Origin: a virus
Lineage: Duplodnaviria; Heunggongvirae; Uroviricota; Caudoviricetes
DNA: 64,000 nucleotides
Direction: 5' to 3' (one strand)
IMG/VR virus record: IMGVR_UViG_3300024268_000010
The position numbers and the translations under genes are program-made. The notes below the pieces were generated by a model. That model was not told the origin of the DNA. It was given only the letters and a program-made list of their open reading frames with translations, and searched no databases. This document shows positions 15,249 to 42,311 of the stretch, in pieces; position 1 is the stretch's first letter; each line of letters starts with the position of its first letter.

Positions 15249-15251
15249 TTA

Positions 15252-23073: not shown

Positions 23074-24846
23074 TTAATTATTAAAATCAATTTTATATTT
23101 GCTCCAGACATCTGCCTTATGTCCATCTTTTATAAACAAAGAACTGAATAGCGCAACCAAACAACAAGTGCAGATACTATTGCCTGCTTGTTTGTATCTT
23201 GCACTTGCAGATGTGAATTTCGCAGCCCTATCGTGGTCGTTATCCGCGAACCCCATCAATCTCCAACACTCCTTGGGAGTTAACTTACGAATTCTCCACT
23301 TAATTTTGTCTTGAATCTCACCATTGGCAACTTCTAGTCCACCACAATTCTGCCTCAATGTAGGAGAATAGTTCTCGTAAATTCTTGCGTCTCTGCTACC
23401 AGGGAATTGATCTTCGATAATAACAGTCTTTTCAAGAATCTTTACACCATTGCGTTCTGCTGACGCTCCACAATTACAAGTCAGTGTATTAATGGCGTCT
23501 TGGTCAGAACTAATACGACTATTATAGTCATCATAAACAATTGGTTCTTTAACAATAAAACTTGATTGAGTAGTTGTGCCATTAAGTGCAGGGGCATAAC
23601 CATCAAATACTCTGTTAGCTTTATTGTATCCGTTAGGGAAACTAATGTCCGCACAATCACCTACATTAAATTCGTCAACCACATCACTATTAATGTATCG
23701 TTTAACATTACCGTCCTCGGTAATCATCTTCTTTTGTGTTTCAGTCCAAAGAGATTGAGGTTCTGCAACATAATTGTCTTTGAGCAGTGTAGTAATTGTA
23801 TTTGCAACACCATCTGTACGAGGCTTCATTTCTCTCATATTACCAATCTTCTCATTAACTTCACCTGCTTCATACTGTTTACGAATTGCCTTACCATATT
23901 CAGTTCTTTCGGCACGAAGCACTTGAGGTTCACAGATGTAATTGTCTTTTTGTACAGATGTTAGAGTGTTTGTACATCCGGTAAAGTTAGGTTCCAGTCT
24001 CTGCTCGGTAGGTGCACCAGTGGTTCTATCAGAAGGATTGTCTGGATTTCTTCCACGAGAAGCAACTATGAAAGGCTCTGGTTCAATGACCATCTGTCCT
24101 CTGTCACTCATAGGATTTGCAGGAATTGTATGAGCATAATCTCTAATAGAGTATTGACTAGTTCCTCTATCACCAAACTTTTGAATAATCACCGGCTCTT
24201 GTTCCTCTACAATTGGTAAAATTGCAGTTTTAAAACCATCTGGACGAGTGGTGATTGTAGGACAGATGCCAGTGTGATTAACCTTTTTATTAAATGCATC
24301 AACCATATCTCCCGGCTCACATGCATTTTCCATAATTGTTTCCATCACTTGACGGAAAAATCTTTCTTTAATATCTGTGGTTACAACCTGTTTGTTTTCT
24401 TCAATGACCATTGGTTCACGATTACCACCATCCATTTTAGTTAAAGTAGGGGCAATGCCGTTCACATCATAAACTCTTCCCTGATTGGGATTATCTCTTG
24501 TTTTTGTAGGGCAAACATTGCCAATCTGTTTAACTTCTGGTTCTTCTTCCACAGGAATACATTTCGGATCTTTATAATCTCTTGCAAGTAATGTATCACA
24601 CACATCGGTTGTTTGAATGCGTTTCTTTTCTTGCACAAATGTTGAGTTAAGAATCTTCTCGATACGGTCATCCGGAAGGTAGTATTTCTCATCAACCGAT
24701 TTTTCAAGGATATCTTTTAAACGAGTTGTGAGTGGAATCTGTTCAGGGAAGATGAAACCATGAGTATCTACATCTTTGCGAATTGATATAGCAAATACAC
24801 GTTCACGATTCTGCGGAATGCCATAGTTCTTTGCGTTGCAATTTGT
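23074..24846 (-). CDS. C5 cytosine DNA methyltransferase, C-terminal exon/segment (motifs VIII-X); upstream boundary approximate
   Basis: The reading frame stays open upstream of the ORF-track Met and encodes NCNAKNYGIPQNRERVF (motif VIII); motif X is YKQAGNSI. Confidence 0.6.
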   Translation of the reverse strand, partial: TNCNAKNYGIPQNRERVFAISIRKDVDTHGFIFPEQIPLTTRLKDILEKSVDEKYYLPDDRIEKILNSTFVQEKKRIQTTDVCDTLLARDYKDPKCIPVEEEPEVKQIGNVCPTKTRDNPNQGRVYDVNGIAPTLTKMDGGNREPMVIEENKQVVTTDIKERFFRQVMETIMENACEPGDMVDAFNKKVNHTGICPTITTRPDGFKTAILPIVEEQEPVIIQKFGDRGTSQYSIRDYAHTIPANPMSDRGQMVIEPEPFIVASRGRNPDNPSDRTTGAPTEQRLEPNFTGCTNTLTSVQKDNYICEPQVLRAERTEYGKAIRKQYEAGEVNEKIGNMREMKPRTDGVANTITTLLKDNYVAEPQSLWTETQKKMITEDGNVKRYINSDVVDEFNVGDCADISFPNGYNKANRVFDGYAPALNGTTTQSSFIVKEPIVYDDYNSRISSDQDAINTLTCNCGASAERNGVKILEKTVIIEDQFPGSRDARIYENYSPTLRQNCGGLEVANGEIQDKIKWRIRKLTPKECWRLMGFADNDHDRAAKFTSASARYKQAGNSICTCCLVALFSSLFIKDGHKADVWSKYKIDFNN

Positions 24847-25760
24847 TATCCTATGGGCTTTTTATCCCATAGTTCTTATAGTTTCCTATAAGTTCAGCAT
24901 ACTTTTTCACCCTCGTTTAACGTTAGGTTTGATATTATCTCAGAATAGACTATATCTATCCGTGTTGGTGCCTCTTGGAGAGGTTATATTCTATATGCAA
25001 TAGTTTCACTCTCTATGCGTTGCCCCTGACTACACTTTTAAATGTAGCCTTCGGTTCGAGTTAACTTATTATAAATAATAATTTCCAGTATTTTTGTCAA
25101 ATTTAATTACGCCTTGTTTGCACAACTCATATGATAATTTTTGCAACTGATCATGAAGTTGTTGGTGTTCTGTGTTATCTCGACACAAATACAAATTTTC
25201 CAAGTCGTCATTACTCTTATCACCATCAATATGATGTACAATTTCTTCTGAAGTTAATTTTCGACCAATTTGTTGTTCTATTTTTTCACGATGGGTAAAT
25301 ACTTTTTTATCATAATCAAACCAATATTTATACCCCGCTATGTCTCGATGCAATTGTTTTGGTTTGTCAATAAGCCCCAACTGCAATCTTTTTCTCATAA
25401 CAACATAGTGTCCAAATCCAAGTCTTCCAATATTTAAATCTTCCCATATTTCTTTGTCCGTCCTGGTCATCCAATGTGTTTTTAAGTATTCAATATCATC
25501 GTCTGACCACGGATAAATCTGACCCATAATACTTTTTTCTGTTATACCAAGTCTTTGATATTTGTTATTAATCGATGCCAAAGAAACATTGAAGATTTTG
25601 CAAAATTCTTTCTTAGATTTAGTTTTGTAATTATCTAAAATATACTGATTTTCCTCTTGCGTCCAATCATGAGCCATAACAATCACCTCTCATTCATGGA
25701 ATATTATTATTCATAACTTAGTTTTCTCGCTTAATTCACCAATCATAATCTTATTTATTT
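24847..25760 (-). other. intervening sequence splitting the methyltransferase gene (candidate group I intron) with an embedded HNH ORF; boundaries approximate
   Basis: About 0.9 kb lies between motif VI/VII and motif VIII of a single MTase. The 24850-25068 segment has no ORF and is rich in hairpins (ccttcgg, cctcttggagagg, ctacac...gtgtag) plus a GATATAGTC S-element-like string. Confidence 0.45.
25069..25686 (-). CDS. HNH homing endonuclease
   Basis: HNH motif VHHIDGDKSNDDLENLYLC...H; 205 aa inside the intervening sequence. Confidence 0.7.
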   Translation of the reverse strand: MIVMAHDWTQEENQYILDNYKTKSKKEFCKIFNVSLASINNKYQRLGITEKSIMGQIYPWSDDDIEYLKTHWMTRTDKEIWEDLNIGRLGFGHYVVMRKRLQLGLIDKPKQLHRDIAGYKYWFDYDKKVFTHREKIEQQIGRKLTSEEIVHHIDGDKSNDDLENLYLCRDNTEHQQLHDQLQKLSYELCKQGVIKFDKNTGNYYL

Positions 25761-26489
25761 CTAAACAAGACGCCCACTGAGCACCTTCCAATATGTGTTA
25801 TATCCAACACTATCAAGCCAACGAACCCATGCTTCAAACTGTCCAATAAACTTCTTCTGCACCAAATTCTTGACATTTTCAAGCATTAAATATTCAGGCA
25901 ACTCATTTTCCTCATATGCTACAGAAAGCAATCTCTGCACTTCTTGGAGCAAACCAGAAGTCGTGCTTTCAAGAGAAGCATTACCACATACTGGACACTT
26001 GTAATTGTAGTCGGGATTGCTAAAGTCGATATCCCATTTGTGACCACACTTAGTACAAGTCTTTGCCGCTCCAGCCAACTTTCCAGCAACAGAAAATGAC
26101 TGACATGGACTACTATATGTAACAAAATTTGCACGAGGCAAGCGTTCAACTTTTGATATGTCACCCAAATTCTTCAGGAGTTTGTCACTAATGTAATATT
26201 GTTTCAGTTTAGGGATGGGTGTTCTGTTTGTAATAGTATGTTTTGATTTCTCAAAATCATATCCTATATTCTTTTCTTGAAGTTCTTTTATCATAATTTC
26301 TGCACTAGGAAAATTATAACTTTCAATTTCCCTTTCAAGGTCAAATCTCATCGCAGCAGATGACACAAGAACATCTTTATCACAATCACATACGCCAACA
26401 CTTTCGTATGGAATATTTAATTGCCGAATTGCTCGTTCTTGGCTTTGAATTCCACTGAATAGTTCTAACAGTTTAATTGATTCTGTCAT
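25761..26489 (-). CDS. C5 cytosine DNA methyltransferase, N-terminal exon/segment (motifs I, IV, VI)
   Basis: LFSGIQ (motif I), SPCQSFSVAG (motif IV), ENVKNLV (motif VI); start taken at MTESIK with the RBS aaaggtga. Confidence 0.65.
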   Translation of the reverse strand: MTESIKLLELFSGIQSQERAIRQLNIPYESVGVCDCDKDVLVSSAAMRFDLEREIESYNFPSAEIMIKELQEKNIGYDFEKSKHTITNRTPIPKLKQYYISDKLLKNLGDISKVERLPRANFVTYSSPCQSFSVAGKLAGAAKTCTKCGHKWDIDFSNPDYNYKCPVCGNASLESTTSGLLQEVQRLLSVAYEENELPEYLMLENVKNLVQKKFIGQFEAWVRWLDSVGYNTYWKVLSGRLV

Positions 26490-26599
26490 TAAATAAATCA
26501 CCTTTCTGTAATCATTCTGTATTGTACAATGTTTAAATATATAGACAAAACTAGCATTTTTGTCTATAATTACAAACATAATCATTTTGTACTGTATAT

Positions 26600-26627
26600 A
26601 TTATAGCATATTATTACCAATTGTCAA
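26600..26627 (-). promoter_or_regulatory. canonical TTGACA-16-TATAAT promoter followed by the ACAGTACAAAATGATT leader
   Basis: On the - strand: TTGACAattggtaataatatgcTATAATatatACAGTACAAAATGATTATG. Confidence 0.55.
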
Positions 26628-26852: not shown

Positions 26853-28781
26853 TTAATCTCCAATCATCATTAAAAATTCATTTTCTGTAATAATAGGTAT
26901 ATTTAACTCAATCGCTTTTTTATATTTACTGCTACCACTTTGTTCGTTTGTGATTAAATAATTTGTATTTTTACTGACTGATCCGGTTGTTTTTGCGCCG
27001 AGTTCAACAATTTTTGTGTTAATACTATCTCTTGTAAAATGGGTAAGTTTTCCTGTCACGCATAGTATTTTTCCACTGAATGGATTCTGTTTCGTCACAG
27101 TCTTCGTCGGCACAACAAACTTCATCTCCGACGCTAAATCAACGATTTCTGCCTCATTGTCAATGAAATACTTAGTAATATTTGCACACGTCTTATCACC
27201 AATATCCTGTAAGTCTGACCAATTGTATCCGTTCTTAAAAGCACTAAGTAATTGCTCAAAATCACCGTTAAATGCTTCCGCAATAGTTTTGGAAGCAGAT
27301 TTACCTACTCCGTCAATAGACAAAGCACATATAAAGTTTTCAAGTTTTACATCCCTGCTCTTTTCAATTGATTCAAGCAATTTATTTACTGACTTGTCTC
27401 CAAATCCATCAAGCTTAATCATATCTGCTTTGTTGACATCCAAATAGTAAATGTCAACAAACTTAGTCAGCCAACCAAGTTCGATAAACTTTTCAAGAGT
27501 CGCCTCGCTTAACCCTTCGATATCCATTGCGGGCTTGGATACAAAGAACTTCAATCTACCCAATAATTTGCCTAAGCAGTTGATGTTTTTGCACATAAGT
27601 ACTTCGGACTCATTCTCTTTCACGACTTCAGTTTTACCACCACAAACTGGGCATTGCTTAGGATAAGTTATAGGAGAATCGCCATCCTGGAGGCAAGAAT
27701 CAATCTGAGGAATGATTTGGTTGGCTTTATACACTTTCACGGTACAATTATTCGTGAGTCCTAACTTCTTAATAATAGAAATGTTATGGAGGGAAGCTTT
27801 ACTAACATCAGTACCGTCAATATTAACTGTTTCAAAAATTGCCGTAGGAGTAAGAGTGTTTGTTTTGCCCATTGTCCATTCAATATCAAGCAGTTTCGTT
27901 TCGTAAAGTTCGTCGTAGAATTTATAAGCTAATCCTCCGCAGAAGTGGTGATCCGTTCTACCCATTAATTCATATTCAACAGGGTTATCTAACTTAAACA
28001 CCAGTCCGTCAATTGGATAACTATAATCTTCTGCAACCTGTTTTAGGCACATTGTATCCTCAACAACATGATATAAACCTCTTAAAAGCGGAACGACAGT
28101 AAAGGAAAGATTTCTGAGCCAAGCCAATACTGCACGCAGACTATTTGACTTAGGGTTTCCAATCACATCCCACGCCACAAATGTCAATTTTCTCTTGGCG
28201 CATTCGTTGCTATCAAGAAGTCTAATGCTTCCAGAAGCGAAGTTTCTAGCATTCTTATATTCGCTTTCAAATTCCTTAAAGTCGTCAAGTTTACAAATGA
28301 TTTCGCCGTCAACTACAAGCCTATCAGTATACGGAATTTTCTTTGGAATCGAAGGAATAACCATTGCATTGTGAGTAATATCCTCACCAATCTCACCATC
28401 CCCTCGTGTTTCTGCTCTTACCAGCCTACCATTTTCATACAAAAGCGAACATGTTAAACCGTCCATCTTTAACATAGCAATCCAATCTTTGTCTCCAACA
28501 AAAGATTTGATCTCTTCAATATCCTTTGTCTTGTCCAGAGATAGCATAGAATGGTTGTGCTTAACCTTCGGCAGTTCATTAACGACAGTATAGTTTACTT
28601 TTTGAGTTGGTGAGTCAGGCATAGTATATCCCCATGTGTGTTCCAATTCGACAAGTTCAAAATACTTATCGTCCCATTCTTTATCAGAGATTTCTGGAAT
28701 ACCTTTGTCATACAATTCTGTATGTCTATTGAGTTCTTTAGTAAGAAATTTAATGCGTGCATATGCGTCAAGTTTTTCCAT
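26853..28781 (-). CDS. ligA: NAD+-dependent DNA ligase
   Basis: KxDG adenylation motif (LKMDGLTCSL), zinc finger CPVCG, C-terminal BRCT-like region; start taken at MEKLD with the RBS aaggag. Confidence 0.9.
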   Translation of the reverse strand: MEKLDAYARIKFLTKELNRHTELYDKGIPEISDKEWDDKYFELVELEHTWGYTMPDSPTQKVNYTVVNELPKVKHNHSMLSLDKTKDIEEIKSFVGDKDWIAMLKMDGLTCSLLYENGRLVRAETRGDGEIGEDITHNAMVIPSIPKKIPYTDRLVVDGEIICKLDDFKEFESEYKNARNFASGSIRLLDSNECAKRKLTFVAWDVIGNPKSNSLRAVLAWLRNLSFTVVPLLRGLYHVVEDTMCLKQVAEDYSYPIDGLVFKLDNPVEYELMGRTDHHFCGGLAYKFYDELYETKLLDIEWTMGKTNTLTPTAIFETVNIDGTDVSKASLHNISIIKKLGLTNNCTVKVYKANQIIPQIDSCLQDGDSPITYPKQCPVCGGKTEVVKENESEVLMCKNINCLGKLLGRLKFFVSKPAMDIEGLSEATLEKFIELGWLTKFVDIYYLDVNKADMIKLDGFGDKSVNKLLESIEKSRDVKLENFICALSIDGVGKSASKTIAEAFNGDFEQLLSAFKNGYNWSDLQDIGDKTCANITKYFIDNEAEIVDLASEMKFVVPTKTVTKQNPFSGKILCVTGKLTHFTRDSINTKIVELGAKTTGSVSKNTNYLITNEQSGSSKYKKAIELNIPIITENEFLMMIGD

Positions 28782-28924
28782 TTTCAAGCTCCTTAATAAA
28801 ATCTGCAATTAAAACAACAACTTCTGTAAAATCTGCAGCCAAATTATCAAAACCAAGTCGTTTAAAATAATCTGCTTTTTCTTGATATTTTTCTTTTTGT
28901 TCTTTCAAATACTCTGGCGTCATA

Positions 28925-29443
28925 TTATTCTCCAATCACATTAATCTGACACATTTTCATGACTTCGAGTGCGTGTCTATGACTCTCTGGAGTTACACAA
29001 GCACAGCAACTTGCGTCTACAGTGATGTTTGCGTCTGGGAACTGTGCTTTAAGCATAATCGCGTTTGATACTACGCAGATGCTTGTACAAGTACCCACGA
29101 GCTCAATGTTTTCAAAATCGCCCTCATACTCCCAATAACGATAACCGAAGGTGGTTTTGTTAATATGGCGACATTCTGGGTGCGACAATTCATCCACAAC
29201 AAGCCAGCCATATGTTCCGTGTACACAATGTTCAATCGGAAGGTGTTTGCCCTCGTTAGTTTCTAAATAATTAAATTTATGCGTGTCTCTTGTAAAAATT
29301 ACTTCATCACCACGAGCTAAATATTCATCAATCTTCTTTTTGACATTTGGAATGATTGCTTGTGCGTATGGATTTGCAAGTGTACCTGTCAAGAAATCAT
29401 TCTGCATATCTATTACAATTAAAGTTTTCATATTATTCTCCAA
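28925..29443 (-). CDS. isochorismatase-family hydrolase, PncA-like nicotinamidase
   Basis: IVIDMQNDF (Asp), a conserved Lys, and catalytic Cys in GTCTSICV; 172 aa. Confidence 0.6.
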   Translation of the reverse strand: MENNMKTLIVIDMQNDFLTGTLANPYAQAIIPNVKKKIDEYLARGDEVIFTRDTHKFNYLETNEGKHLPIEHCVHGTYGWLVVDELSHPECRHINKTTFGYRYWEYEGDFENIELVGTCTSICVVSNAIMLKAQFPDANITVDASCCACVTPESHRHALEVMKMCQINVIGE

Positions 29444-29675
29444 TCTTGATATTTTTTATCTGCACCTCAGTAAGTTCAGTAACCTTAAACGGGTCTCTCT
29501 GGTCTTCTCGTTCAACTTCTTTTATAACAAAAGTTATGTCTTGATGACTAACGTTCTTTATATTATTTGCGCTTAAATAATTGCAAATGATTTCCATAAC
29601 TTGCACTGGCGTTAGACTTATAGTTGCATTTAATTTCATATCAAATACCTTCCTTGATTCTATAATCAACTGCAT
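29433..29675 (-). CDS. hypothetical protein
   Basis: 80 aa ORF between the PncA-like and pncB genes. Confidence 0.4.
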   Translation of the reverse strand: MQLIIESRKVFDMKLNATISLTPVQVMEIICNYLSANNIKNVSHQDITFVIKEVEREDQRDPFKVTELTEVQIKNIKIGE

Positions 29676-30834
29676 TTTTCAAATATGTGATGTAGTCATT
29701 GTTTTGGCACATGGTTTTGCCGGGCACATCACTCAATTTTGCAACTGGATGTCCATTAACATATTGCAATTTAATAACAATATTGATAGGGTTGACATTA
29801 GTATCGTTACTTAAATAAGTACCAATCCCAAAACTTACATTGATTCTGTCTTTAAGTACATCATAAATACTCTGTGCCTTGTCAAAATCCAGACCGTCGC
29901 TAAACAGTAATGTTTTCGTTTTAGGATCGATTCCAAGTTTTTCGTAATGAGCAATCAATTTTTCTCCCCACTCAATCGGATCACCACTATCATGTCTTAC
30001 ACCAGTATAACAAGTTGCTTGAAGTCTATTAAAGTCCATAAGAAACAAGTCTGTGCCAAGTGTGTCAGTAAGTGCAGTGCCGAGATCTCCTTGATATTCA
30101 TCGAACCATTCATCCATTGCCATCTTATTTGTATATGCAAGAGTTACACCAGGAATACCTTGAAACATTTGTACATATTCGTGAGCATATGTACCAATAG
30201 GCTTGCACCCATACTTCATTGCAAGATATACATTAGAAGTACCAACACACTTGCCCGTTAAAAGAAGACGTTCGACCGCAAAATCTTGGAACTCTCTACT
30301 TAATCTTCTACGGCAACCAAATTCCGCAAAATTAAATGTATATTTTCCTGTGTTAATATTATGCATTTTATGAAAGAGTTTTATAACCGCAGAATCCAGA
30401 AGTTCATCATAATCATATTTCATTCTAAAATATACTTCATTCACAATTTCAAGAAGATAGATTTCAAACTGCATTACGGAAAACAGTGGTCCATCAACTT
30501 GAAGATTGAGCGTGCCGTCTGGGTTGCCGTGACAAGTGACATATCTACGAAGAGGGCGCCAGAGACGAAGGAATTCCACATAGTCAGATTTAATAAACCG
30601 AAGTGAATTTAGATAATCAAGTTCTTCGTCGGTAAATGTAAGTGTACAAAAGTGGTCAATCTGTGCATTGATTTCATCAACCATTTCAGGAGTAAATTCA
30701 ACATCTTTATTACGACATTTGAAAAGATAAACACCATTTAAATTAGTATGTTTATGAAACATTACCTGTCCCATTGTAAACTTATATAAATCTGTATCCG
30801 TCAAATGCGTAATAATAGGGCTAAGTTTCATCAT
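29641..30834 (-). CDS. pncB: nicotinate phosphoribosyltransferase
   Basis: Strong similarity to E. coli PncB along its length: DTDLYKFTM, GVRHDSGDPIEWGEKLIAHYEKLGIDPKTKTLLFSD, NIVIKLQYVNGHPVAKLSDVPGKTMC. Confidence 0.85.
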   Translation of the reverse strand: MMKLSPIITHLTDTDLYKFTMGQVMFHKHTNLNGVYLFKCRNKDVEFTPEMVDEINAQIDHFCTLTFTDEELDYLNSLRFIKSDYVEFLRLWRPLRRYVTCHGNPDGTLNLQVDGPLFSVMQFEIYLLEIVNEVYFRMKYDYDELLDSAVIKLFHKMHNINTGKYTFNFAEFGCRRRLSREFQDFAVERLLLTGKCVGTSNVYLAMKYGCKPIGTYAHEYVQMFQGIPGVTLAYTNKMAMDEWFDEYQGDLGTALTDTLGTDLFLMDFNRLQATCYTGVRHDSGDPIEWGEKLIAHYEKLGIDPKTKTLLFSDGLDFDKAQSIYDVLKDRINVSFGIGTYLSNDTNVNPINIVIKLQYVNGHPVAKLSDVPGKTMCQNNDYITYLKNAVDYRIKEGI

Positions 30835-30849: not shown

Positions 30850-31398
30850 TCATTTCTTTTGATGTTGGCAAATATTCTTAAACATTGTCTTAAAACCGCA
30901 TTCTTCGTCAACTTTTAAGCAATAAAGAATAATTTCAATATAGTCTTTATCGTTTTCGTGCATTGCACGAGGAAGTTTTATTTTATTAGTCCACCACTTA
31001 TATTCTGCATCATATGAAAAATTCTTTCCCATATAGGCTCTTGCTGCACCAAGATAATCACAAAGCATTTCTACTTTATATTTCCAAGGCATTTCAACTG
31101 GATGCCCACCTTTGTCAAAGTTATCTTGCCAATATTCATAGTGATGCGGATTACGACCCTTATGGTGCATCCAAGCCATAGACACTCCATTTTCTTCCTT
31201 ACATGCGTCAATGGGTGATCGAGTTCCACTATAATATTTTACACCTTCCCAGAATTCAACTGGAGAAAATTTAGACATATCATGCCACAAACCTTGCCAA
31301 CCACGACCACATTTGCACATATAATACCAAACCCAAAATTTGTGTTTGATGATTGTTTTAAGATGTCCAAAGAATCTCTTAAAAAAATTCATAACCAA
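30850..31398 (-). CDS. hypothetical His/Trp-rich protein
   Basis: 182 aa, MHHKGRNPHHYEYW; no family recognised. Confidence 0.45.
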   Translation of the reverse strand: MVMNFFKRFFGHLKTIIKHKFWVWYYMCKCGRGWQGLWHDMSKFSPVEFWEGVKYYSGTRSPIDACKEENGVSMAWMHHKGRNPHHYEYWQDNFDKGGHPVEMPWKYKVEMLCDYLGAARAYMGKNFSYDAEYKWWTNKIKLPRAMHENDKDYIEIILYCLKVDEECGFKTMFKNICQHQKK

Positions 31399-31469: not shown

Positions 31470-32396
31470 TTAACCGATTCCTTTAAGAATGGTTGTGTCA
31501 CTACCAACAACCTCCGGCAATTTGCCATCCCAGTTATCGGCATATGTTTTTTCAATAAGTTTGTCTGTAATCGACTCAGAAATCTTCTTGTTAGCTTCTG
31601 CCTCTGCTTCAGCAGCAATTCTCTTTGCCTCTGCTTCAGCTTCTGCTTTGATAATCGCCTGTTCTGCATTAATGCGAGCGACTTCTTTTTCAGCCTCTGC
31701 TTGTTTCAAAGCAACTTCTTTGTCTTTCTGAGCCTGAATCAAAGCAGTTTTCGCCTCAATCTCTGCAAGTTCAAGTTCCTGTTGTGCCGTAACTTTTTTC
31801 TGAATCGCCTGTGCGGTTTCCTCGTCCACAGAAATGTTAGTAAAGTTAACAGTATCAATAATAATTCCATAAGCAGCAAACTTTTCTCGGAGATATACAT
31901 CAAGTTCTGCATTAATTTGTGTTCGTTTATCGCCAAAAATATCTGTTACGGGATAATTCGCAGATACTTCCTGTGTCCATGCAACCACCTTGGGTTTGAT
32001 AAAAGTATTTTTAATTTCCTCTCCTGAACGACCCTTAAATAACGTAAATGTTTCTGTTAGTCTTTCAGCATCAAATTTATACGAAAACTCAAGATCCACT
32101 TTCACTGTTTTGCCATCAGATGTAGGAATGCTAAAACTTTCATCTGTCTTTGAGTCGCCTTTGTTATCTGCTGTTAAATAAGATTGTTCAAGCCCAATGG
32201 AATATGTAGTTACTTTTTTTGTAGGGGAAACCACATGCCAACCCTGTGACAATGTTTTTTCTTCAATGCCACCTCGCATATTGTAGACAACACCTGCATA
32301 ACCAGCGTCTATTTTTGCAGTGCACATAAACACCATTACAATTGCCAAAACAAGAATTACCGCCAAGACAATACCACCAACCAAACCTTTTTTCAT
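31470..32396 (-). CDS. SPFH/band-7 (prohibitin/flotillin-like) membrane protein
   Basis: N-terminal TM helix followed by an SPFH core and an Ala/Glu-rich coiled coil; start taken at MKKGLVGG with the RBS ggag. Confidence 0.75.
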   Translation of the reverse strand: MKKGLVGGIVLAVILVLAIVMVFMCTAKIDAGYAGVVYNMRGGIEEKTLSQGWHVVSPTKKVTTYSIGLEQSYLTADNKGDSKTDESFSIPTSDGKTVKVDLEFSYKFDAERLTETFTLFKGRSGEEIKNTFIKPKVVAWTQEVSANYPVTDIFGDKRTQINAELDVYLREKFAAYGIIIDTVNFTNISVDEETAQAIQKKVTAQQELELAEIEAKTALIQAQKDKEVALKQAEAEKEVARINAEQAIIKAEAEAEAKRIAAEAEAEANKKISESITDKLIEKTYADNWDGKLPEVVGSDTTILKGIG

Positions 32397-32397
32397 A

Positions 32398-32553
32398 TTA
32401 TTGCTCCTTTTCTTTATTCTCTTCAAACATTGCTTCTTTTGCATCAATAAATAATCTGCTGAAAAATTTACCAATTGGTCTGTACAAAAATGCACACAAA
32501 AACCACAGCAGACATACACCAAGAAAAACTAATAATAAAAATACGGGATTCAT
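32398..32553 (-). CDS. small membrane protein (51 aa)
   Basis: MNPVFLLLVFLGVCLLWFLCAFLYRP...; RBS aggaga. Confidence 0.3.
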   Translation of the reverse strand: MNPVFLLLVFLGVCLLWFLCAFLYRPIGKFFSRLFIDAKEAMFEENKEKEQ

Positions 32554-32658
32554 TTACATCTCTCCTATCTTATCGTTTGCGTCTTCTTGACGCCACAACC
32601 ACACCAAGAACAAAAACAATCACAAGAGTAATAGCAAACGATGTTAAACTCAAATATA

Positions 32659-33411
32659 TCATTTGTTACCTCTTTGTCTCTTTAGTTCGTCAACAACACG
32701 TTGTGCTTCTCTGTTTTGCTCCGACTGTCTCATTCTGTTCTCTGCGGCCTGAGCACTCGTATCATATGCGATCTTACTACCCTTTGCTCTTTCTCTTGTT
32801 TTCTTTGCACCTTCACGAACACGTTCCAGCATTCGATCGCTTTCACTGTTAAGTGCAAGATTGTCAAGAGATTGGTGAAGTTCAATCATTTGGTGATCTG
32901 CCTCAAGCTGAAATACAACTTGTTCTTTTTCTTCTCGAAGTTTTCTCAACTCCACTGCCGCCTGATCTCTCACTTCTTTTTGATGCTTCTGCGCTTCTTT
33001 CATTTCGGCAATTGTGTCCTGAAGAACTTCAATTTTGCTTTCCAGTGTCACCAATCTATTTGCATAATACAGTGCGTCTTCATCATTACTACCATCAACA
33101 CACAAGTTTAATTGCTGTTTGGTCTTCATAACATCTTTTTTTACTTGATACAAATCTTTTTCAGTGGTATCCACTTTACCAGAAATATCAGCATAAGTAG
33201 CAGACGCTCTGTTGTAAAATTCTTCTTTCTCACGAATGGCCGCATTATAATAATCTTTCGCACCCTCTGGCGTTGAGGCATCTTGCCTCATAATTTCATC
33301 TGTTCTTCCTCTAAATTTAACAAGCAACTGTTGCAAAAACGGCTTATTAAAAATCAAAAGAAAAACAAGTACAATGAGTAAAACTCCAATTAAAATTCCA
33401 ACAACAGTCAT
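32659..33411 (-). CDS. membrane-anchored coiled-coil protein (PspA/LemA/TelA-like stress protein)
   Basis: N-terminal TM helix (VVGILIGVLLIVLVFLLIF) followed by a long charged coiled coil; sits next to the TerD genes. Confidence 0.45.
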   Translation of the reverse strand: MTVVGILIGVLLIVLVFLLIFNKPFLQQLLVKFRGRTDEIMRQDASTPEGAKDYYNAAIREKEEFYNRASATYADISGKVDTTEKDLYQVKKDVMKTKQQLNLCVDGSNDEDALYYANRLVTLESKIEVLQDTIAEMKEAQKHQKEVRDQAAVELRKLREEKEQVVFQLEADHQMIELHQSLDNLALNSESDRMLERVREGAKKTRERAKGSKIAYDTSAQAAENRMRQSEQNREAQRVVDELKRQRGNK

Positions 33412-33422
33412 ACATTTACTCC

Positions 33423-34004
33423 TTATTCTGCGTCAATTCCATATGTGGCACACAGTTTTGCTAAGCCACCATTATATCCACTGCCAATTGCTTTGAATTG
33501 CCACTGACTATTGTGCTTATAAATTTCTCCAACGACCAATGCTGTTTGTGTGGAGAAATCCTCACTCAAATCATAGCGCAAAATTTCTTCGTTGTTATTC
33601 TCGTCAACAAGTCGAATATAGGCATTAGAAATCATTCCGAAGTTTTGAAGTCTATGCTCTGCGTCATAAATTGTAATAACTGCAACCAATCGTTCATAAC
33701 CATCAGGAATTTTTGACAATTCGATTTTGATCACCTCGTCGTCTCCGTCACCTTCGCCAGTACGATTATCTCCGGTGTGAATCACACTTTTGCTCGGATG
33801 TGTTAAATTACCATAAAAGACAAAATCATTATCATTGCCTACCTTGCCATTGTGCTTAAGCATGAAAATTGACGCGTCCAAATCAAAATTTGCTTCGCCG
33901 TCATAGTGATTAATATCCCAACCCAAACCAATAAGAACCTTATCAAGAGAGGGGTTGCCTTTTGTAAGGCTCACCCTCTGACCTTTGTTTAAACTTACAG
34001 ACAT
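33423..34004 (-). CDS. TerD-domain protein (paralogue 1)
   Basis: TerD hallmarks: GLGWD, the acidic Ca-binding GDNRTGEGDGDDE loop, FGMI. Confidence 0.85.
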   Translation of the reverse strand: MSVSLNKGQRVSLTKGNPSLDKVLIGLGWDINHYDGEANFDLDASIFMLKHNGKVGNDNDFVFYGNLTHPSKSVIHTGDNRTGEGDGDDEVIKIELSKIPDGYERLVAVITIYDAEHRLQNFGMISNAYIRLVDENNNEEILRYDLSEDFSTQTALVVGEIYKHNSQWQFKAIGSGYNGGLAKLCATYGIDAE

Positions 34005-34014
34005 TTTATTCTCC

Positions 34015-34587
34015 TTATCTATATTTTCTTGTCATCGAGGAAATACTAGTATCAGTCGTACCTTGACCGACAGCGTTGAATTTCCATTCATTATTATGAT
34101 TGTATACTTCTGCAAAAATCATTGCTGTTTTACCATCATAATTATCTGATAGATTGTACTTACAAATTTCTTTGTGTGTAGAAGCATCAACCAAACGAAT
34201 GAATGCATTCTTAATCATGCCAAAATCCTGTTTTCTTGATTCACAAGCATAAATATTAACGACAAACACAATCTTTTTTACTTTGGACGGCATATCGGAA
34301 AGGCTGACAATAATCTGTTCGTCATCCCCATCTCCATCTCCCGTGAGATTGTCTCCAGTATGACGAACCTTACCATCCAGAGAATAAGTGTGTCCGTAAT
34401 ACACACAATCTATCAACTTTTCATTTTCATCAAGAATAATTGCCGAAGCGTCACAGTCAATGTTAGGCTGATAACCGAAGATTCCTCTTTTTACAGCATC
34501 CCAACCAAGACCAACGACGACTTTGCTCAGCCCATTCACTTCTTTAGACAAACTGATTTTCTGACCCTTTGATAAACTAATAGACAT
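34015..34587 (-). CDS. TerD-domain protein (paralogue 2)
   Basis: GLGWDAV, GDNLTGDGDGDDE, FGMIKNAFIRL. Confidence 0.85.
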   Translation of the reverse strand: MSISLSKGQKISLSKEVNGLSKVVVGLGWDAVKRGIFGYQPNIDCDASAIILDENEKLIDCVYYGHTYSLDGKVRHTGDNLTGDGDGDDEQIIVSLSDMPSKVKKIVFVVNIYACESRKQDFGMIKNAFIRLVDASTHKEICKYNLSDNYDGKTAMIFAEVYNHNNEWKFNAVGQGTTDTSISSMTRKYR

Positions 34588-34603
34588 ATTTACTTCCTCC
34601 CTA

Positions 34604-35182
34604 TTAAATATTCAAACCAAAATTACGACCAATGGTGCTCAAGCCACCTGCATAACCAGAACCAACAGCAGCAAACTTCCATTCACCATTATGTCTGTAC
34701 AGTTCGCCAGCAACAATGCCAGTTTCCAGCGAAAAATCTTCATTCAACTCATACTTAAACAGTTCTTCGTTTGTGGTAATGTTATATGCTCGAATATAAG
34801 AATTGTCCACCATGCCAAAATTCTGAAGTCTTGTTTCTGCGTCATAAATCGTTGCTGCAAAACTAATCTTTGAGATATTGGTTGGCACTTTAGACAAATC
34901 AACCTTAATGGTTTCATCATCACCGTCACCAACACCACTTCTGTTGTCACCAGAATAATCGACTGCACCACTAGGATGTGTGGGCTGATTATAGAAAATG
35001 AAATCGTGTTCGCCGGTCACTTTGCCTGACGCATCGGTAAGAAATACCGATACATCCAAATCAAATTCATTGTTGCCATCATACTTATTGGTGTCCCAAC
35101 CAAGCCCAAATGCAACATTAACCAAGCCGCTGTTTCCTTTCGTCAGATCAATCTTCTGACCTTTTACCAAGCTAATAGACAT
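34604..35182 (-). CDS. TerD-domain protein (paralogue 3)
   Basis: GLGWD, GDNRSGVGDGDDE, FGMVDNSYIR. Confidence 0.85.
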   Translation of the reverse strand: MSISLVKGQKIDLTKGNSGLVNVAFGLGWDTNKYDGNNEFDLDVSVFLTDASGKVTGEHDFIFYNQPTHPSGAVDYSGDNRSGVGDGDDETIKVDLSKVPTNISKISFAATIYDAETRLQNFGMVDNSYIRAYNITTNEELFKYELNEDFSLETGIVAGELYRHNGEWKFAAVGSGYAGGLSTIGRNFGLNI

Positions 35183-35188
35183 ATTCTT

Positions 35189-37819
35189 TTATCTCCTTTT
35201 ATTAATTAAAATTTTTCTCATAATATCAATCGGGATTACGATGAACGACAATCCGATAACTACTGCCCACTGCATGGGGGTAAGGGCACAAACTTTCATA
35301 AAATCACCAGCAAGAGTACATACAAAGACTACGCCAAGCATGATACCAATTGCGATCTTGCTAAACAGTTTGTTTTTGCTAAGACCTGTAAACAGGTTAA
35401 TATGTTCGGTTCTAATATTAAAACCATTAAGCACTGCCATGAAACAGAGCAAAGCAAAGCGAGCGGTAAGTTTACTTGTTTCATCAGTAAACAATGTATT
35501 AGGAATTGCGAAAATTAAGATGGAGTATGCGATAAGAAAAGCAATGGCACTGCATGCAATTTTACATTTCGCACCACGGATGAAGAGTCCAGAACCTTTT
35601 TTGATAGGTTGTTCGTGCATATATTCTTCTTTGGGAGGCTCGCCACCAAATGACAGTGAGTTAAGAGAGTCCATAATAATGTTGACAAGAAGGATTTGTA
35701 CCGAAGCCAACACTGCCAAACCACCTGTCAGCATTGGGAAAATCATACTGAGTACAAGAAGAGAAATATTGATAGGCAACTGAAATTCAAGGAACATCAT
35801 GATATTGTGCATAAATGTTCTACCAAGCTCCACAGCTTTTACAACGGATGCGAAGTTATCATCGGTAAGAATGATATCGGATGCTTCTTTCGCAACATCA
35901 CTACCACTCTGCATACCAAATCCAACATCTGCTCTCTTCAAGGCGGGGGAGTCATTTACACCGTCACCAGTCATTGCGACCGACATACCAAGTTCTTGAG
36001 CCAAAGTAACCAATCTTAACTTTGTATTAGGGGAACATCTGGAAATTACTCTGAGACGAGGAATGATTTCTTTGACTTCGTCGTCTGACATTTTTTCAAA
36101 CTCATCGTTTGTCAATGCAACATCTCCATCTTTGTAAATTCCACATTCTTTTGCAACCGCAATTGCTGTTTCAATGCAGTCACCGGTGATTTCAATTACC
36201 TGAATACCCGCTTCGTGTGCAACACGAACTGCCTCAGGAACTTCTTTTCTTACAGGGTCAACCACACCAATGATACCCAAGAAAGTCATATCATTAGGAA
36301 GTTCATTTTCAACGAGCTTTCCGTTTGCAATACCAAGTGCAATGCATCTGATTGAGTTTGTCGTAAACTCTTTGATTTTTGCATTAAGTTCGTCTTTGTT
36401 TGCAAAACTTACAATGGAACCGTCACTTGTCATTGCAGAACTGCAAGCAGTGATAATCTTTTCTGGAGCACCTTTGTAATATGTAACTTCTTCCTCGTTG
36501 GTGCAAGCAGAATATTTGTTGACACTATTGAATACCTGTTTATCAAGTATGCCATATTCTGCAACAATATCATGTGCCTCTTTGGATGTTACCAATGATA
36601 GCACTGCTCTATCGATTGAGTTGCCACCAGTGATACAGTCATTTGAATCAAAGACGGCGCTATTGTTAAGAATAATATTGATTTTTAGAAAATCAAGCAA
36701 CATGGTGTTTTGTTCAATTTCGTTTCCGTTATAATCAACGATTGTTTTCGGAGACATAATACCAGTTGTCAGTGTGCCAGTTTTATCAGTGCAAATCAAA
36801 TTAACATATGCAAGTTCGGGAATTTTGCCGGGGTTTTTAGCAAGAATATTAAACTTTTCCATTGTTTTAACGTTCTGCTTTGTAACAAGCTTAACAATCA
36901 ACGGCAGTCCTTCTGGTACTGCGGCAACGACAATCGTAAGCGCGACAGAGAAATTTGAAGCGAACTTCTGAATAAGTTCCAGAACATTTCCTGTAAAATA
37001 CTGAGAAAATCCAACTTCCAAAATGCCCGTGATTGTCAATACAAAAAATGTAATGACTGCTGCAATTGTTCCCCATTTCGAAATGAATTCACTCAGCTTA
37101 TCGAGCGCAATGGTGAGTGCAGTCTTTGGAGCTTCCAATGTCTGCATTTTAACAAGTGTGTCACCGTTTACAGTATTAACGCCAACATCCGTGACTATCA
37201 TTTTACCTTCACCGGACATTACACTTGTTCCTGCAAACAAACAGTTCTGATTCGTGTATGCGTCAGTTGAAGTTGTTTTTGTGTGTATATAGTCTTTGAC
37301 AGGAGTTTTACGGCATTCTTTCGTTTCACCGTTAATGGCTGCGTTGTTTACACTAACCTTTCCTTCGACGATGTAACCATCTGCAAAAATTTCCTGACCC
37401 ATACCGATACAAACAACATCTCCAACTACAAGGTCGTCTTTGTTGATCGTTTGTACTTTTCCATCTCGAATAACATCACAATATCTTACCGATGTCTTGA
37501 GTCGCAATTCTGTGGCTGATTTTTGTACACCAAGACCTGTTCTGATTGCAATACCTGTGACAATTGCCAGAACCAGCATAATCATCAGAGGTTCAGAACA
37601 TTCCATTACACCGAGCGCCGCTAGTGCTAACTGCAGTACCGTGATTGCGATTAGAATTAGTGTAATCTTTTCGCTCAGTGCTTCTTTGGCAAAATCGTAC
37701 CACTTCTTTTGTTTTGGTTCAGGCAATTTGTTGCTACCATGCTTCCATCTGCTTTCAACTACCTGTTTTTGTGTCAATCCGTTCATCTTTTTTGTTTCTC
37801 CTTTTTTTGTTTCATTCAA
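35189..37819 (-). CDS. P-type cation-transporting ATPase (type II, Ca2+-ATPase-like)
   Basis: DKTGTLT phosphorylation site, TGDGVNDSPALKRADVGFGM hinge, about 10 TM segments, 876 aa. Confidence 0.85.
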   Translation of the reverse strand: MNETKKGETKKMNGLTQKQVVESRWKHGSNKLPEPKQKKWYDFAKEALSEKITLILIAITVLQLALAALGVMECSEPLMIMLVLAIVTGIAIRTGLGVQKSATELRLKTSVRYCDVIRDGKVQTINKDDLVVGDVVCIGMGQEIFADGYIVEGKVSVNNAAINGETKECRKTPVKDYIHTKTTSTDAYTNQNCLFAGTSVMSGEGKMIVTDVGVNTVNGDTLVKMQTLEAPKTALTIALDKLSEFISKWGTIAAVITFFVLTITGILEVGFSQYFTGNVLELIQKFASNFSVALTIVVAAVPEGLPLIVKLVTKQNVKTMEKFNILAKNPGKIPELAYVNLICTDKTGTLTTGIMSPKTIVDYNGNEIEQNTMLLDFLKINIILNNSAVFDSNDCITGGNSIDRAVLSLVTSKEAHDIVAEYGILDKQVFNSVNKYSACTNEEEVTYYKGAPEKIITACSSAMTSDGSIVSFANKDELNAKIKEFTTNSIRCIALGIANGKLVENELPNDMTFLGIIGVVDPVRKEVPEAVRVAHEAGIQVIEITGDCIETAIAVAKECGIYKDGDVALTNDEFEKMSDDEVKEIIPRLRVISRCSPNTKLRLVTLAQELGMSVAMTGDGVNDSPALKRADVGFGMQSGSDVAKEASDIILTDDNFASVVKAVELGRTFMHNIMMFLEFQLPINISLLVLSMIFPMLTGGLAVLASVQILLVNIIMDSLNSLSFGGEPPKEEYMHEQPIKKGSGLFIRGAKCKIACSAIAFLIAYSILIFAIPNTLFTDETSKLTARFALLCFMAVLNGFNIRTEHINLFTGLSKNKLFSKIAIGIMLGVVFVCTLAGDFMKVCALTPMQWAVVIGLSFIVIPIDIMRKILINKRR

Positions 37820-37901: not shown

Positions 37902-38930
37902 TTATATCTCACCTTTAACAATTCTCTCATTAACAGACGCCACGAACTCGTTAATTTTGTTGTAATCCGGGTTATCTGGTAACTCTGTTGTCTGCTTTGC
38001 CTTGTCGAGTCTTGCTTCTAGCTCATCTACAATCTCAAAAAATTCTGGGATTGGTTGTCTATTTTCGTCAAGATATTTACCATTACGAATATCCATAAGG
38101 AAATCATGATCTTTTTCTCTGTATGTAATAATTTCTCCATTGTTAAGAATATCAAGGCACATCAGATAAAGACGAACCAAATGCATCATGTGCTTCGACA
38201 GCTTGCCGTGTTCGATGGCATTCTGATTGCGTTTACCAATCTTGCCGTATTCTTTGACAATATTGTTCATTACAGACCACATACACTTATAATCTCTAAG
38301 AGGATAATGCTTGAGATTGACATCCATAAAGATTTCACTCTCGTACTCTTCCGACTCAGACTTGTCGATATAGAGTTTAATTGCGTCGTCATCGTATGTG
38401 AAGTATCTGGTCTTGAAATCATAGGATGCGTTTTCAATGCTATTCAGAATATGACGTTCCTGCTCCGTTTGAGATACCAATCTTGCAGCCTTATTGTCGA
38501 GACGACGTAATTGAGCATTAGCATAACCTCCAAATGAATGAACACAACGCTTTGAAAGGAATAAATGACGATGATCAAGTAATTCCTTACCTATCGGAGA
38601 GAGGTAGATATAATGTTCTGGCTTGCAACCTAATAGTTCAATTGTATTTGGATTCACATTTGTCAGAAGGGAAATCAATTTATTAAAACTATAAATTGTA
38701 GTATCAGTATCCTCGTTGACGAACTGCTCAAAATTCTTATTTGTTAAGATTTCATCTTTTGCATTTAATGCACAGCCACGGATATCAACATCAGACCCTT
38801 CCACATTAGTTCCATATGCATGACTTCCACCAAGAGTAAGAAGAATGATATTGGGACCGAGATGCTCGTTGGTTCTAAGGAAATTATATTCCGGCGTTTG
38901 TATTAGAGTTTTAATTTCATTAATTGTCAT
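37902..38930 (-). CDS. Pol-beta-superfamily nucleotidyltransferase (paralogue A)
   Basis: GGSHAYGTNVEGSDVDIRG, a GS...DxD nucleotidyltransferase motif. Confidence 0.5.
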   Translation of the reverse strand: MTINEIKTLIQTPEYNFLRTNEHLGPNIILLTLGGSHAYGTNVEGSDVDIRGCALNAKDEILTNKNFEQFVNEDTDTTIYSFNKLISLLTNVNPNTIELLGCKPEHYIYLSPIGKELLDHRHLFLSKRCVHSFGGYANAQLRRLDNKAARLVSQTEQERHILNSIENASYDFKTRYFTYDDDAIKLYIDKSESEEYESEIFMDVNLKHYPLRDYKCMWSVMNNIVKEYGKIGKRNQNAIEHGKLSKHMMHLVRLYLMCLDILNNGEIITYREKDHDFLMDIRNGKYLDENRQPIPEFFEIVDELEARLDKAKQTTELPDNPDYNKINEFVASVNERIVKGEI

Positions 38931-38957
38931 TTTATCACCTCAATCATTTTGTATGGT

Positions 38958-39836
38958 TTAATGAGCGTTTAAATCTGCTTCGTGAAGCAAATCTATCTGT
39001 TTCTTCAAGCACGGAGGTAGATTGTTGTAATACTTGGTGTTCATAAAAGGATCCATATGTGTGCTAATAAGCCAAGCAATATACGGAGTAACATATTGCA
39101 TACCATACGACACCCATGCTCCTACACATTGATGCTGATAATAATGTGCAGTTTCACAAGGATTGCCTTTATTATCTACGAATGCCTTGACATATGGTTT
39201 ACCAACATCATGATAGAATGCCGCAAACCCAATATCACTAGAATACACACCAATCTTATTAACAATATATTTGTTTGCCTCCAAACAATGGTCAAATACA
39301 TTTAATGTATGGTGAGGATTATCATGGGAAATCTGCATACTCGAACAAGTGGAATTTGCATAGTCATATGCATTAAAATCTTTTGGTTTAACAATCTGAA
39401 TTTCGTCAATACCTTCATCATAATAAGGGGCATGGAATCGTTTAAGCATTCGGTCAATAACTTCCTTGCCAACAGTACGTTCTCTCTCAGAGTCCCTTTC
39501 AATACAAACCTCAATAGGTGCCCAAGCAATATGACACTCAATCTTAGCAAACTTTGGACACGCTCCAATAATACCCATTCTATCCTTTCGGGTGACATTG
39601 GTTGCGTCATACAACACATCATGACCGTCATTAAGCGCCACGATAGCTCTATTTTGCATCAAAGAGAACACATCAACTGGATTTCCCTGTACGCTTTCAT
39701 CACCGTAAAGTTCTTTACGAATTTCGTCCGAACTTAAATGGACAGCATTTGAATTGTGTTGAATGTAATTTTTTGCATATGTGGTCTTTCCAGAACCCGG
39801 AATTCCACACAAAATTATCAGTTTTGGTCTATTCAT
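38958..39836 (-). CDS. P-loop polynucleotide-kinase-like domain fused to an HD phosphohydrolase domain
   Basis: Walker A (ILCGIPGSGKTTYAKNY) at the N-terminus; HD motifs at the C-terminus (HDNPHHTLNVFDH, FYHDVGKPY). Confidence 0.55.
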   Translation of the reverse strand: MNRPKLIILCGIPGSGKTTYAKNYIQHNSNAVHLSSDEIRKELYGDESVQGNPVDVFSLMQNRAIVALNDGHDVLYDATNVTRKDRMGIIGACPKFAKIECHIAWAPIEVCIERDSERERTVGKEVIDRMLKRFHAPYYDEGIDEIQIVKPKDFNAYDYANSTCSSMQISHDNPHHTLNVFDHCLEANKYIVNKIGVYSSDIGFAAFYHDVGKPYVKAFVDNKGNPCETAHYYQHQCVGAWVSYGMQYVTPYIAWLISTHMDPFMNTKYYNNLPPCLKKQIDLLHEADLNAH

Positions 39837-41885: not shown

Positions 41886-42311
41886 TTAAAGTTCACAAAT
41901 CAAAATCTCAACGTCTGTATCTTCGAACACTTCACAAATAATATCGTAAACATCGTCCCACTGAAGGCGATCAAGACCACAACCGATTTTCGGCATTGCC
42001 AACTTAGTTGCGTCAAGGTTTACCATAATTTCTTTCATCACTTCAAGTGCTTCTCTTACGGCTTCATATCTAGGTTTATGATAACACTTCGGCTTCGTGA
42101 CAAGATTGAACACATTATCAATCGGAAGTGCGTCTCCACCCTCGTATGCATAATTATCATAGTTCTTAAAGAGCTTAAATCTCATGTTGTAAACTTCATC
42201 AAACTTCTTCGCAATACCGGCACCGAGAGCAAAGTCGGCACTAATGCAGTGTGCCAGATAATAGCCCTGAGGCACCGTAAACAAGTCTCTTTTTTCAATT
42301 GTAATATTCAT
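41886..42311 (-). CDS. macro-domain protein (ADP-ribose binding/hydrolase)
   Basis: 141 aa; ALGAGIAKKF glycine-rich macro motif, IGCGLDRL. Confidence 0.7.
   Translation of the reverse strand: MNITIEKRDLFTVPQGYYLAHCISADFALGAGIAKKFDEVYNMRFKLFKNYDNYAYEGGDALPIDNVFNLVTKPKCYHKPRYEAVREALEVMKEIMVNLDATKLAMPKIGCGLDRLQWDDVYDIICEVFEDTDVEILICEL

Follow-up and report, generated by a model that had tools for sequence, protein, structure and literature searches.

Rebuilding of nicotinamide adenine dinucleotide (NAD+) by phages has been shown experimentally to counter NADase defences. NARP1 consists of Adps and Namat, NARP2 of Nampt and Nmnat, and the NARP preprint mentions neither PncA, PncB and NadE nor deamidation. 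NARP3, a PnuC transporter with a NadR-like enzyme, also restores NAD+ (Sci Adv 2026, PMC13464706), and a 2022 survey of viral NAD+ and ADP-ribose systems covers NadV, NadM and NadR only. Gut jumbo phages with complete salvage or Preiss-Handler pathways have been reported from annotation only (Microbiome 2024, PMC11662467); they include a pncB-nadD-nadE cluster (e.g., Kuafu_71), and phage pncA is mentioned there in passing. Here, we analyzed a stretch of 64,000 nucleotides (the window) of a Caudoviricetes genome, IMG/VR record IMGVR_UViG_3300024268_000010. An original prediction, made from the sequence alone, had placed at 26853-30834 a phage NAD+ module composed of an NAD+-dependent DNA ligase, a PncA-like nicotinamidase, and the nicotinate phosphoribosyltransferase PncB. 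We found that the window holds a reduced form of a cassette that is common in related gut phages, comprising PncA, DUF5662, PncB, NadD, and NadE, and on balance we read it as a partial deamidating nicotinamide-salvage cassette that would return nicotinamide towards NAD+ during infection.

Assignment of PncB and PncA

The pncB gene (29641-30834, minus strand) encodes a protein of 397 aa, which is predicted to convert nicotinate and phosphoribosyl pyrophosphate (PRPP), with ATP, to nicotinate mononucleotide (NaMN). The protein passes the equivalog models NF003704 (483 bits; cutoff, 379) and TIGR01514 (416.6 bits; cutoff, 269.6), carries the Pfam domains PF17767 (104 bits) and PF04095 (220 bits), and among solved structures matches PncB2 of Pseudomonas aeruginosa (1yir) with 304 bits. 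Its alignment with PncB of Escherichia coli K-12 shows 43% identity over 392 aa with 11 gap positions (3%), which bears out the earlier claim of a bona fide PncB nearly collinear with the E. coli enzyme. H218, within the motif GTYAHE, aligns with H220 of E. coli PncB (Met1 counted), which we take to be the site of ATP-dependent autophosphorylation (phosphohistidine), equivalent to His219 in mature Salmonella PncB. The equivalog match, together with the co-occurrence with PncA and NadE, suggests that the enzyme prefers nicotinate over nicotinamide. The protein belongs to the E. coli type of about 400 aa (TIGR01514) and not to the type of about 450 aa represented by TIGR01513 (90 bits); because the likely hosts of this phage are Clostridia, the phage may not have acquired the gene recently from its host.

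The PncA-like gene (28925-29443, minus strand) lies downstream of pncB, as had been noted, and encodes 172 aa, or 168 aa when called from 29431. The product is predicted to hydrolyze nicotinamide to nicotinate and NH3. It matches PF00857 (Isochorismatase) with 91.7 bits over residues 7 to 169, and its best solved relative is the short pyrazinamidase/nicotinamidase of Pyrococcus horikoshii (1im5/1ilw). The catalytic triad D12/K96/C123 aligns with D10/K94/C133 of the P. horikoshii PncA, and the metal site D53/H55/H72 aligns with D52/H54/H71 of 1im5, so that all six nicotinamidase residues are kept. Among 61 distinct phage homologues, which are 42 to 70% identical to the window protein, the triad is conserved in 60 to 61 and the metal site in all 61. 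This Asp-x-His...His metal site sets nicotinamidases apart from other isochorismatase-like hydrolases. Both assignments hold at the level of sequence, and the two enzymes would cover the proposed first two steps, from nicotinamide through nicotinate to NaMN.

Organization of the gene string

The genes are packed tightly and co-directionally on the minus strand in the order DUF5662, PncB, a small open reading frame (ORF), PncA, a second small ORF, and LigA. The DUF5662 gene (30850-31398; 182 aa as the longest ORF, 180 aa as called from 31392) starts the string 16 nt upstream of pncB and had gone unnamed in the originally predicted module. Because it adjoins PncB and regularly accompanies these genes in related phages, the unit reaches 31398, not 30834. 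The ORF between PncB and PncA (29433-29675; 80 aa at its longest, 68 aa as called at 29433-29639) is a gene call on three independent contigs; it has no Pfam or PHROG match and no homologue in the related viral loci. The ORF that parts PncA from LigA (28768-28935; 55 aa at its longest, 51 aa as called at 28768-28923) is likewise a gene call on independent contigs, with no family match in Pfam or PHROG. LigA (26853-28808; 651 aa as the longest ORF, 642 aa as called at 26853-28781) is followed in minus-strand order by an ORF of 54 to 59 aa.

Neighboring genes abut or overlap, and a consensus scan found no strong internal promoter or terminator in the string, with counts not above those of shuffled sequence; therefore, the genes are likely to be co-transcribed. 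At the gathering threshold, Rfam found tRNAs only and neither an NAD+ riboswitch nor an intron near the module. A perfect sigma-70 consensus (TTGACA, 16 nt, TATAAT, with TG upstream) lies at 26600-26627 on the minus strand, just downstream of the LigA string and ahead of a methyltransferase gene; the next transcription unit may begin there.

Conservation of the cassette in related phages

An IMG/VR scan with PncB gave 109 matches, of which 80 loci were kept; a PncA scan added five loci, and PncB was detected in 82. Within 5 kb of PncB, these 82 loci contain PncA in 77, DUF5662 in 72, NadE in 71, and NadD in 60 cases, the identities of the cassette partners being confirmed with PF02540, PF01467, TIGR00552, and TIGR00482. 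The commonest order is PncA, DUF5662, PncB, NadD, NadE, on gut contigs of about 150 kb. Dereplication at 90% PncB identity left 16 clusters; PncA/PncB adjacency holds in most of them, and the association is still seen after dereplication and in several gene orders. The NadE proteins of the relatives are 38 to 56% identical. In most clusters that seemingly lack NadD, profile hidden Markov models (HMMs) and Pfam identify divergent CTP_transf_like genes beside NadE. Two loci carry adenylyltransferase-NadE fusions as single ORFs (PF01467 plus PF02540; L015, 1859-3235, and L016, 15676-16917), whose adenylyltransferase domain is of the NadD or the NadR/NadM type and which link the last two steps of the pathway. 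Since NadE acts on deamido-NAD only, its near constancy in the relatives indicates that the deamidated route is used, which supports the nicotinamidase assignment of the PncA-like protein.

The window arrangement, without NadE, resembles that of the lineage formed by L001 to L003 and L011. The contigs of these NadE-less relatives were not recovered among the best 80 of at least 517 NadE-anchored viral loci.

NadD and NadE in the inspected sequence

Proteins identical to this PncB are encoded on 23 metagenomic contigs. Two contigs of about 174.8 kb carry the window genes (JGI 3300031555 Ga0318466_10001326 and ENA ERZ27248370 k141_4000473), and the positions and orientation of these genes differ between the two, suggesting that the genome of about 175 kb is complete and circularly permuted. 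The sequence inspected here amounts to about 74 of the 175 kb, namely, the window and 10 kb beyond its end (L169).

Pfam scans of the window ORFs of at least about 90 aa and of the 10 kb beyond its end revealed no NAD synthase and no NadD/NMNAT-type adenylyltransferase, and tblastn with phage NadD and NadE queries gave no match in the window. Profile HMMs for NadD and NadE, applied to all stop-to-stop ORFs of at least 50 aa, found neither gene in the window or in L169 (best window hit, E = 0.8), with a positive control at 346 bits. The window ORFs scanned also contain no PRPS-like, NadV, PnuC, NadR, or NMN-deamidase gene (NMN, nicotinamide mononucleotide). The original prediction had called for a check on whether NadD/NadE-like genes occur elsewhere in the genome; within the inspected sequence, the answer is negative, and the pathway encoded there stops at NaMN.

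Comparison with described NAD+ pathways

The window encodes the same first two enzymes as the bacterial PncA, PncB, NadD, and NadE salvage route (pncA/pncB in E. coli), and the clustering of pncA with pncB, with nadE added in the relatives, is like that of the P. aeruginosa pncA-pncB1-nadE operon (PA4918-4920). It differs in being phage encoded, in its short PncA, in the embedded DUF5662 gene, and in that NadD and NadE are not in the inspected sequence.

NARP2, as in the NadV/NatV pair of Vibrio phage KVP40, also starts from nicotinamide and uses a PF04095-family transferase with PRPP. However, NARP2 is an amidated two-step route via NMN, whereas the window cassette would deamidate first, uses a nicotinate-type PncB, and needs NadD plus NadE; its transferase matches the PncB equivalogs and not NadV, and no CTP_transf_like protein was found in the window. 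NARP1 rebuilds NAD+ from what NADases leave behind, and its Namat shares the PF04095 fold family with PncB, but the window cassette does not reuse ADP-ribose; the window ORFs scanned contain no Prs-family domain, and PRPS-like and NAMPT-like queries from Phage Phass-1 gave no window match. NARP3 resembles the window cassette as a two-gene phage module on a classical salvage route, but it imports nicotinamide riboside, and no PnuC or NadR domain was found in the window ORFs scanned.

The nearest precedent is that of the "NAD-jumbo phages" (PMC11662467), which share a phage PncB-based NAD+ route and an origin in gut or rumen metagenomes, and in which the route was read as both NAD+ supply and counter-defence. 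The full cassettes of the window's relatives are the same kind of cluster as the reported pncB-nadD-nadE cluster. Therefore, the proposal of a distinct salvage route stands with respect to NARP1, NARP2, and NARP3 but not with respect to this precedent. The jumbo genomes exceed 200 kb, while the window phage has about 175 kb, adds pncA and DUF5662, and has no nadD or nadE nearby. What is new in comparison with the reported clusters is thus the attachment of a nicotinamidase and DUF5662, the absence of the last two steps from the inspected sequence, and a genome below 200 kb.

The DUF5662 protein

DUF5662 has 1,827 homologues in the protein collection, none with an informative name, and a full-text literature search for "DUF5662" found no paper. 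The protein is histidine rich, with the invariant residues H12, H19, H39-D40, K43, H78-H79, R82, H86, E88, and D114, and its AlphaFold2 model is all-helical (predicted local distance difference test [pLDDT], 89.8). A weak resemblance to HD-GYP domains was seen, and neither Foldseek nor a profile search of PDB sequences gave a match in the PDB. Possibly, it is an HD-like metal-dependent hydrolase acting on some nucleotide-like substrate.

Many Clostridia genomes encode the family; at least 591 matches fall in Oscillospiraceae, Ruminococcus, Lachnospiraceae, and others. Among the best 80 DUF5662-anchored viral loci, 54 contain PncA, DUF5662, and PncB, 3 more have PncA beside DUF5662, and another 3 consist of Macro, PARP, and DUF5662 in that order. 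DUF5662 is thus often recruited to phage NAD and ADP-ribose neighborhoods. As a candidate stand-in for the missing NadD, it was rejected in view of the divergent CTP_transf_like genes that lie beside NadE in most such clusters.

The LigA, PARP-like, and Macro-like neighbors

LigA passes NF005932 (516.5 bits; cutoff, 369) and TIGR00575 (512.6 bits; cutoff, 444). Its Pfam adenylation, OB, and BRCT domains score above the cutoff, HHH_2 scores just under it (25.4 bits; cutoff, 27), and the NAD-specific Nlig-Ia domain and a KMDG motif are also present in the translation. A LigA gene adjoins the cassette in one related locus only (L085), and LigA was therefore rejected as a cassette member. Such ligases consume NAD+ and release NMN and AMP, not nicotinamide, and consequently PncA and PncB do not recycle the LigA product. 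The inclusion of LigA in the NAD+ module was hence correct as to a complete NAD+-dependent ligase but fails as to its membership in the conserved unit and the use of its product.

The nearby PARP and macro domain that had been pointed out are indeed present, about 10 kb from the NAD genes. The PARP-like ADP-ribosyltransferase gene (40656-41873, minus strand; 405 aa) matches PF00644 with 80.2 bits, and its translation shows HGS...GIYF...EIVFY motifs consistent with an H-Y-E triad; the enzyme is predicted to release nicotinamide. The Macro-domain-like gene (41886-42311, minus strand; 141 aa) matches PF01661 at a borderline 22.5 bits (cutoff, 22), and its product is a possible hydrolase of ADP-ribose derivatives. 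In 9 of the 58 loci of the main related cluster, Macro homologues (48 to 52% identity) are found upstream of PncA.

Proposed role and alternative explanations

In the proposed mechanism, cleavage of NAD+ by host NADase defences, or by the phage PARP-like enzyme, would yield nicotinamide, which PncA would deamidate to nicotinate and PncB would join to PRPP, with ATP, to give NaMN. Conversion of NaMN to nicotinate adenine dinucleotide (NaAD) by NadD and then to NAD+ by NadE would presumably fall to host enzymes or to genes in the uninspected 100 kb or so. The value of the module would lie in pulling nicotinamide back towards NAD+ during infection, with faster recycling, and the same step would remove nicotinamide, a product inhibitor of ADP-ribosyltransferases. 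The sequences themselves establish the gene identities, the catalytic residues, and the conserved co-occurrence; the enzyme activities, the dependence on host NadD and NadE, the timing of expression, and any counter-defence benefit are what we infer in this scheme; by analogy with NARP1 to NARP3, a counter-defence role is plausible.

Several observations weigh against this reading. Because 58 near-identical loci form one cluster and supply most of the co-occurrence count, the raw counts given above overstate independence. NadD and NadE were not found in the window or in the 10 kb past one end. Host enzymes would in that case set the limit on NAD+ formation, and the case for counter-defence is correspondingly weaker for this particular phage. 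With half of the four-step route left to the host, it is doubtful that salvage could suffice to beat an activated NADase, and a route of four enzymatic steps, three of them ATP consuming, is slower and costlier than NARP1 or NARP2. The full cassettes of the relatives are better counter-defence candidates than that of the window, whose genes might equally well serve to supply the phage's own consumers of NAD+. As for DUF5662, 80 genome loci from Clostridia (L089 to L168) carry it as an isolated gene, surrounded by unrelated housekeeping genes and without conserved neighbors; PncA or PncB lies near it in none of these loci, and a NadE-like match was found in one. The link between DUF5662 and NAD genes is thus specific to phages. 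Even there, 20 of the 80 DUF5662-anchored viral loci have none of the tested NAD or ADP-ribose genes. In the two such loci that were inspected, its neighbors are a dUTPase, a deoxynucleoside monophosphate-kinase-like gene, and FolD in one case and an RNA ligase in the other, so that among phages lacking PncB it also occurs in a setting of nucleotide metabolism. DUF5662 may not be functionally part of the pathway.

Different explanations of the gene content were also weighed. The PncA-like protein might be just another cysteine hydrolase of the isochorismatase family, acting on a different substrate, and its place beside PncB might have no pathway meaning. Its score against the PncA equivalog NF008623 speaks against the nicotinamidase assignment (26.6 bits, from the N-terminal third only, against a cutoff of 174 in a model built on the longer E. 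coli-type PncA, the window protein being of the short type of about 170 aa); moreover, BLASTP to E. coli PncA aligns only the N-terminal 55 residues, and the matching PHROG family is annotated "unknown function." However, the protein has the complete metal site and triad, both of them invariant, its closest solved relatives are nicotinamidases, and the family is tied to PncB/NadE or to PRPS-like/NAMPT-like/NadE in well above 100 viral loci, which makes a generic hydrolase very improbable and leaves the nicotinamidase assignment well supported, if not proven. It is also improbable, though to a lesser degree, that the cassette serves to clear nicotinamide, in the sense that PncA would remove an inhibitor of ADP-ribosyltransferases and sirtuins, letting the PARP-like enzyme keep working, and PncB would dispose of the nicotinate. 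The same logic of nicotinamide removal applies to yeast Pnc1 and Sir2, and it would fit the PARP-like enzyme with its apparent H-Y-E triad and the Macro-like protein encoded 10 kb away, the Macro genes directly upstream of PncA in some relatives, and the three Macro-PARP-DUF5662 loci. Against it, the 5-kb surroundings of PncB contain PARP in practically no locus of the 82 but NadE in 71, so that selection apparently acts on completing NAD+ synthesis and not only on removing nicotinamide.

A purely metabolic role, in which the cassette would supply NAD+ for LigA, the PARP-like enzyme, and redox metabolism, or would provide vitamin B3 salvage by lysogenic conversion of a niacin-dependent host, with no specific tie to anti-phage NADases, seems to us unlikely but deserves serious weight. 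It agrees with the position of the cassette in a long string of replication and nucleotide-metabolism genes beside an NAD+-dependent ligase, and with the presence of a serine recombinase and, past the window, of integrase-like genes, according to which the phage may be temperate. On the other hand, all phage NAD+ pathways tested so far (NARP1, NARP2, and NARP3) counter NADase defences, the NMN from LigA is unusable by PncA and PncB, and a nicotinamidase step is sensible mainly where NAD+ is cleaved to nicotinamide. A further possibility, which we entertain tentatively, is that the phage is self-sufficient, with NadD and/or NadE located in the roughly 100 kb outside the window and the four-step pathway borne by the phage as in most relatives. 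An adenylyltransferase and NadE are indeed part of most related cassettes, viral contigs very often encode NadE, and the inspected part is less than half of the genome; yet NadD and NadE adjoin PncB in the relatives and are not dispersed, the lineage of L001 to L003 and L011 is also without NadE for 10 kb in both directions, and neither gene was found in the window or L169. A partial deamidating salvage cassette remains the reading that we favor.

Genomic surroundings

The GC content is about 36%, and the host is likely an anaerobic, low-GC bacterium of the Clostridia. The window genes include those for tail proteins, a holin, an amidase, TubZ, and a serine recombinase; the anaerobic ribonucleotide reductase NrdD/NrdG and a dUTPase; and a PolIII-alpha type replicase, a helicase, and RecJ. 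No match to the module was found by Megablast among GenBank phages, indicating no close cultured relative. The TubZ-like tubulin and the large serine recombinase lie at 14170-17192, and two tyrosine-recombinase-like genes follow just past the window end (L169, 2421-4427); these genes suggest a phage that is temperate or maintained like a plasmid, in the manner of the Clostridium phages that carry TubZ.

A stress-type cluster immediately upstream of the NAD genes (31470-37819, minus strand) encodes an SPFH/Band 7 protein, a PspA-like protein, three TerD paralogues, and a P-type cation ATPase, and the PspA, TerD, and ATPase genes recur beside the NAD cassette with 69 to 81% identity in five related loci (L026, L040, L059, L069, and L079). 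An RNA-repair-like gene set (37902-40672, 45933-47438, and 49609-54154, minus strand) comprises RlaP, an AAA_33 plus HD kinase, a nucleotidyltransferase, and a PHA02142 OB-fold protein with the fold of RNA ligases. Among the nine tRNA genes that lie with this set, one match spans 118 nt (54037-54154) and possibly includes an intron. The segment 52001-53608 encodes a DUF2828/DUF7788 protein.

On the minus strand, a C-5 cytosine DNA methyltransferase is apparently encoded in two parts, the N-terminal one by an ORF at 25761-26585 and the C-terminal one by an ORF at 23074-24636, and an HNH endonuclease gene (25069-25686) separates them; Rfam, at the gathering threshold, detected no intron in 23074-26585. 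An adenylosuccinate-synthetase-like protein (42327-43499, minus strand) matches the PHROG for 2-aminooxy adenylosuccinate synthetase (PurZ type) with 202 bits, and its best phage matches are about 33 to 47% identical. With the PurZ-type match, a 2-aminoadenine (Z) genome becomes conceivable; neither a DatZ nor a MazZ partner was identified.

A second PncA-headed cassette and its implications

The same PncA-like family (44 to 49% identity) heads a second cassette, found in Phage Phass-1 (OQ749652.1, 96860-101298; L249, 9001-13439), which consists of a PncA-like protein, a diverged PRPS-like protein, a NAMPT-family protein, a HAD-like protein, and NadE. The NAMPT-like plus NadE part occurs in 51 of the best 80 NadE-anchored IMG/VR loci (L254 to L329), 19 of the 51 having PncA in the 3-kb flank. 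PRPS-like plus NAMPT-like is the NARP1 gene pair, and the Phass-1-type PRPS-like protein is 27 to 33% identical to other phage PRPS-like genes. Because this pair is bracketed by a nicotinamidase and NadE, the Phass-1-type cassette suggests a putative deamidated NARP1 variant that would work via deamido-NAD. A literature search found no description of the PncA/PRPS-like/NAMPT-like/NadE arrangement.

Taking the two cassettes jointly, we tentatively propose, as a possibility that falls short of an even chance, that phages have a fourth means of defeating NADase immunity, namely, PncA-dependent rebuilding of NAD+ through deamidation, and that it is common among the large phages infecting gut Firmicutes. 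This strategy would exist as a PncB type, of which the window is a reduced member, and as a NARP1-like type, with DUF5662 as a new accessory metal-dependent hydrolase that would feed or protect the pathway, its conceivable substrates including ADP-ribose derivatives, NADP, or mononucleotides. NAD+ depletion is among the commonest bacterial anti-phage strategies, and NARP1 to NARP3, which come mainly from work on phages of Proteobacteria and Bacillus, each changed views of phage host range and defence evasion. A cassette of two to five genes with clear substrates is directly testable, and DUF5662, a family without described function, gains a concrete biochemical context. If the proposal is true, the deamidating nicotinate route would be the gut-anaerobe version of NAD+ rebuilding, tying phage infection to the vitamin B3 metabolism of the gut.

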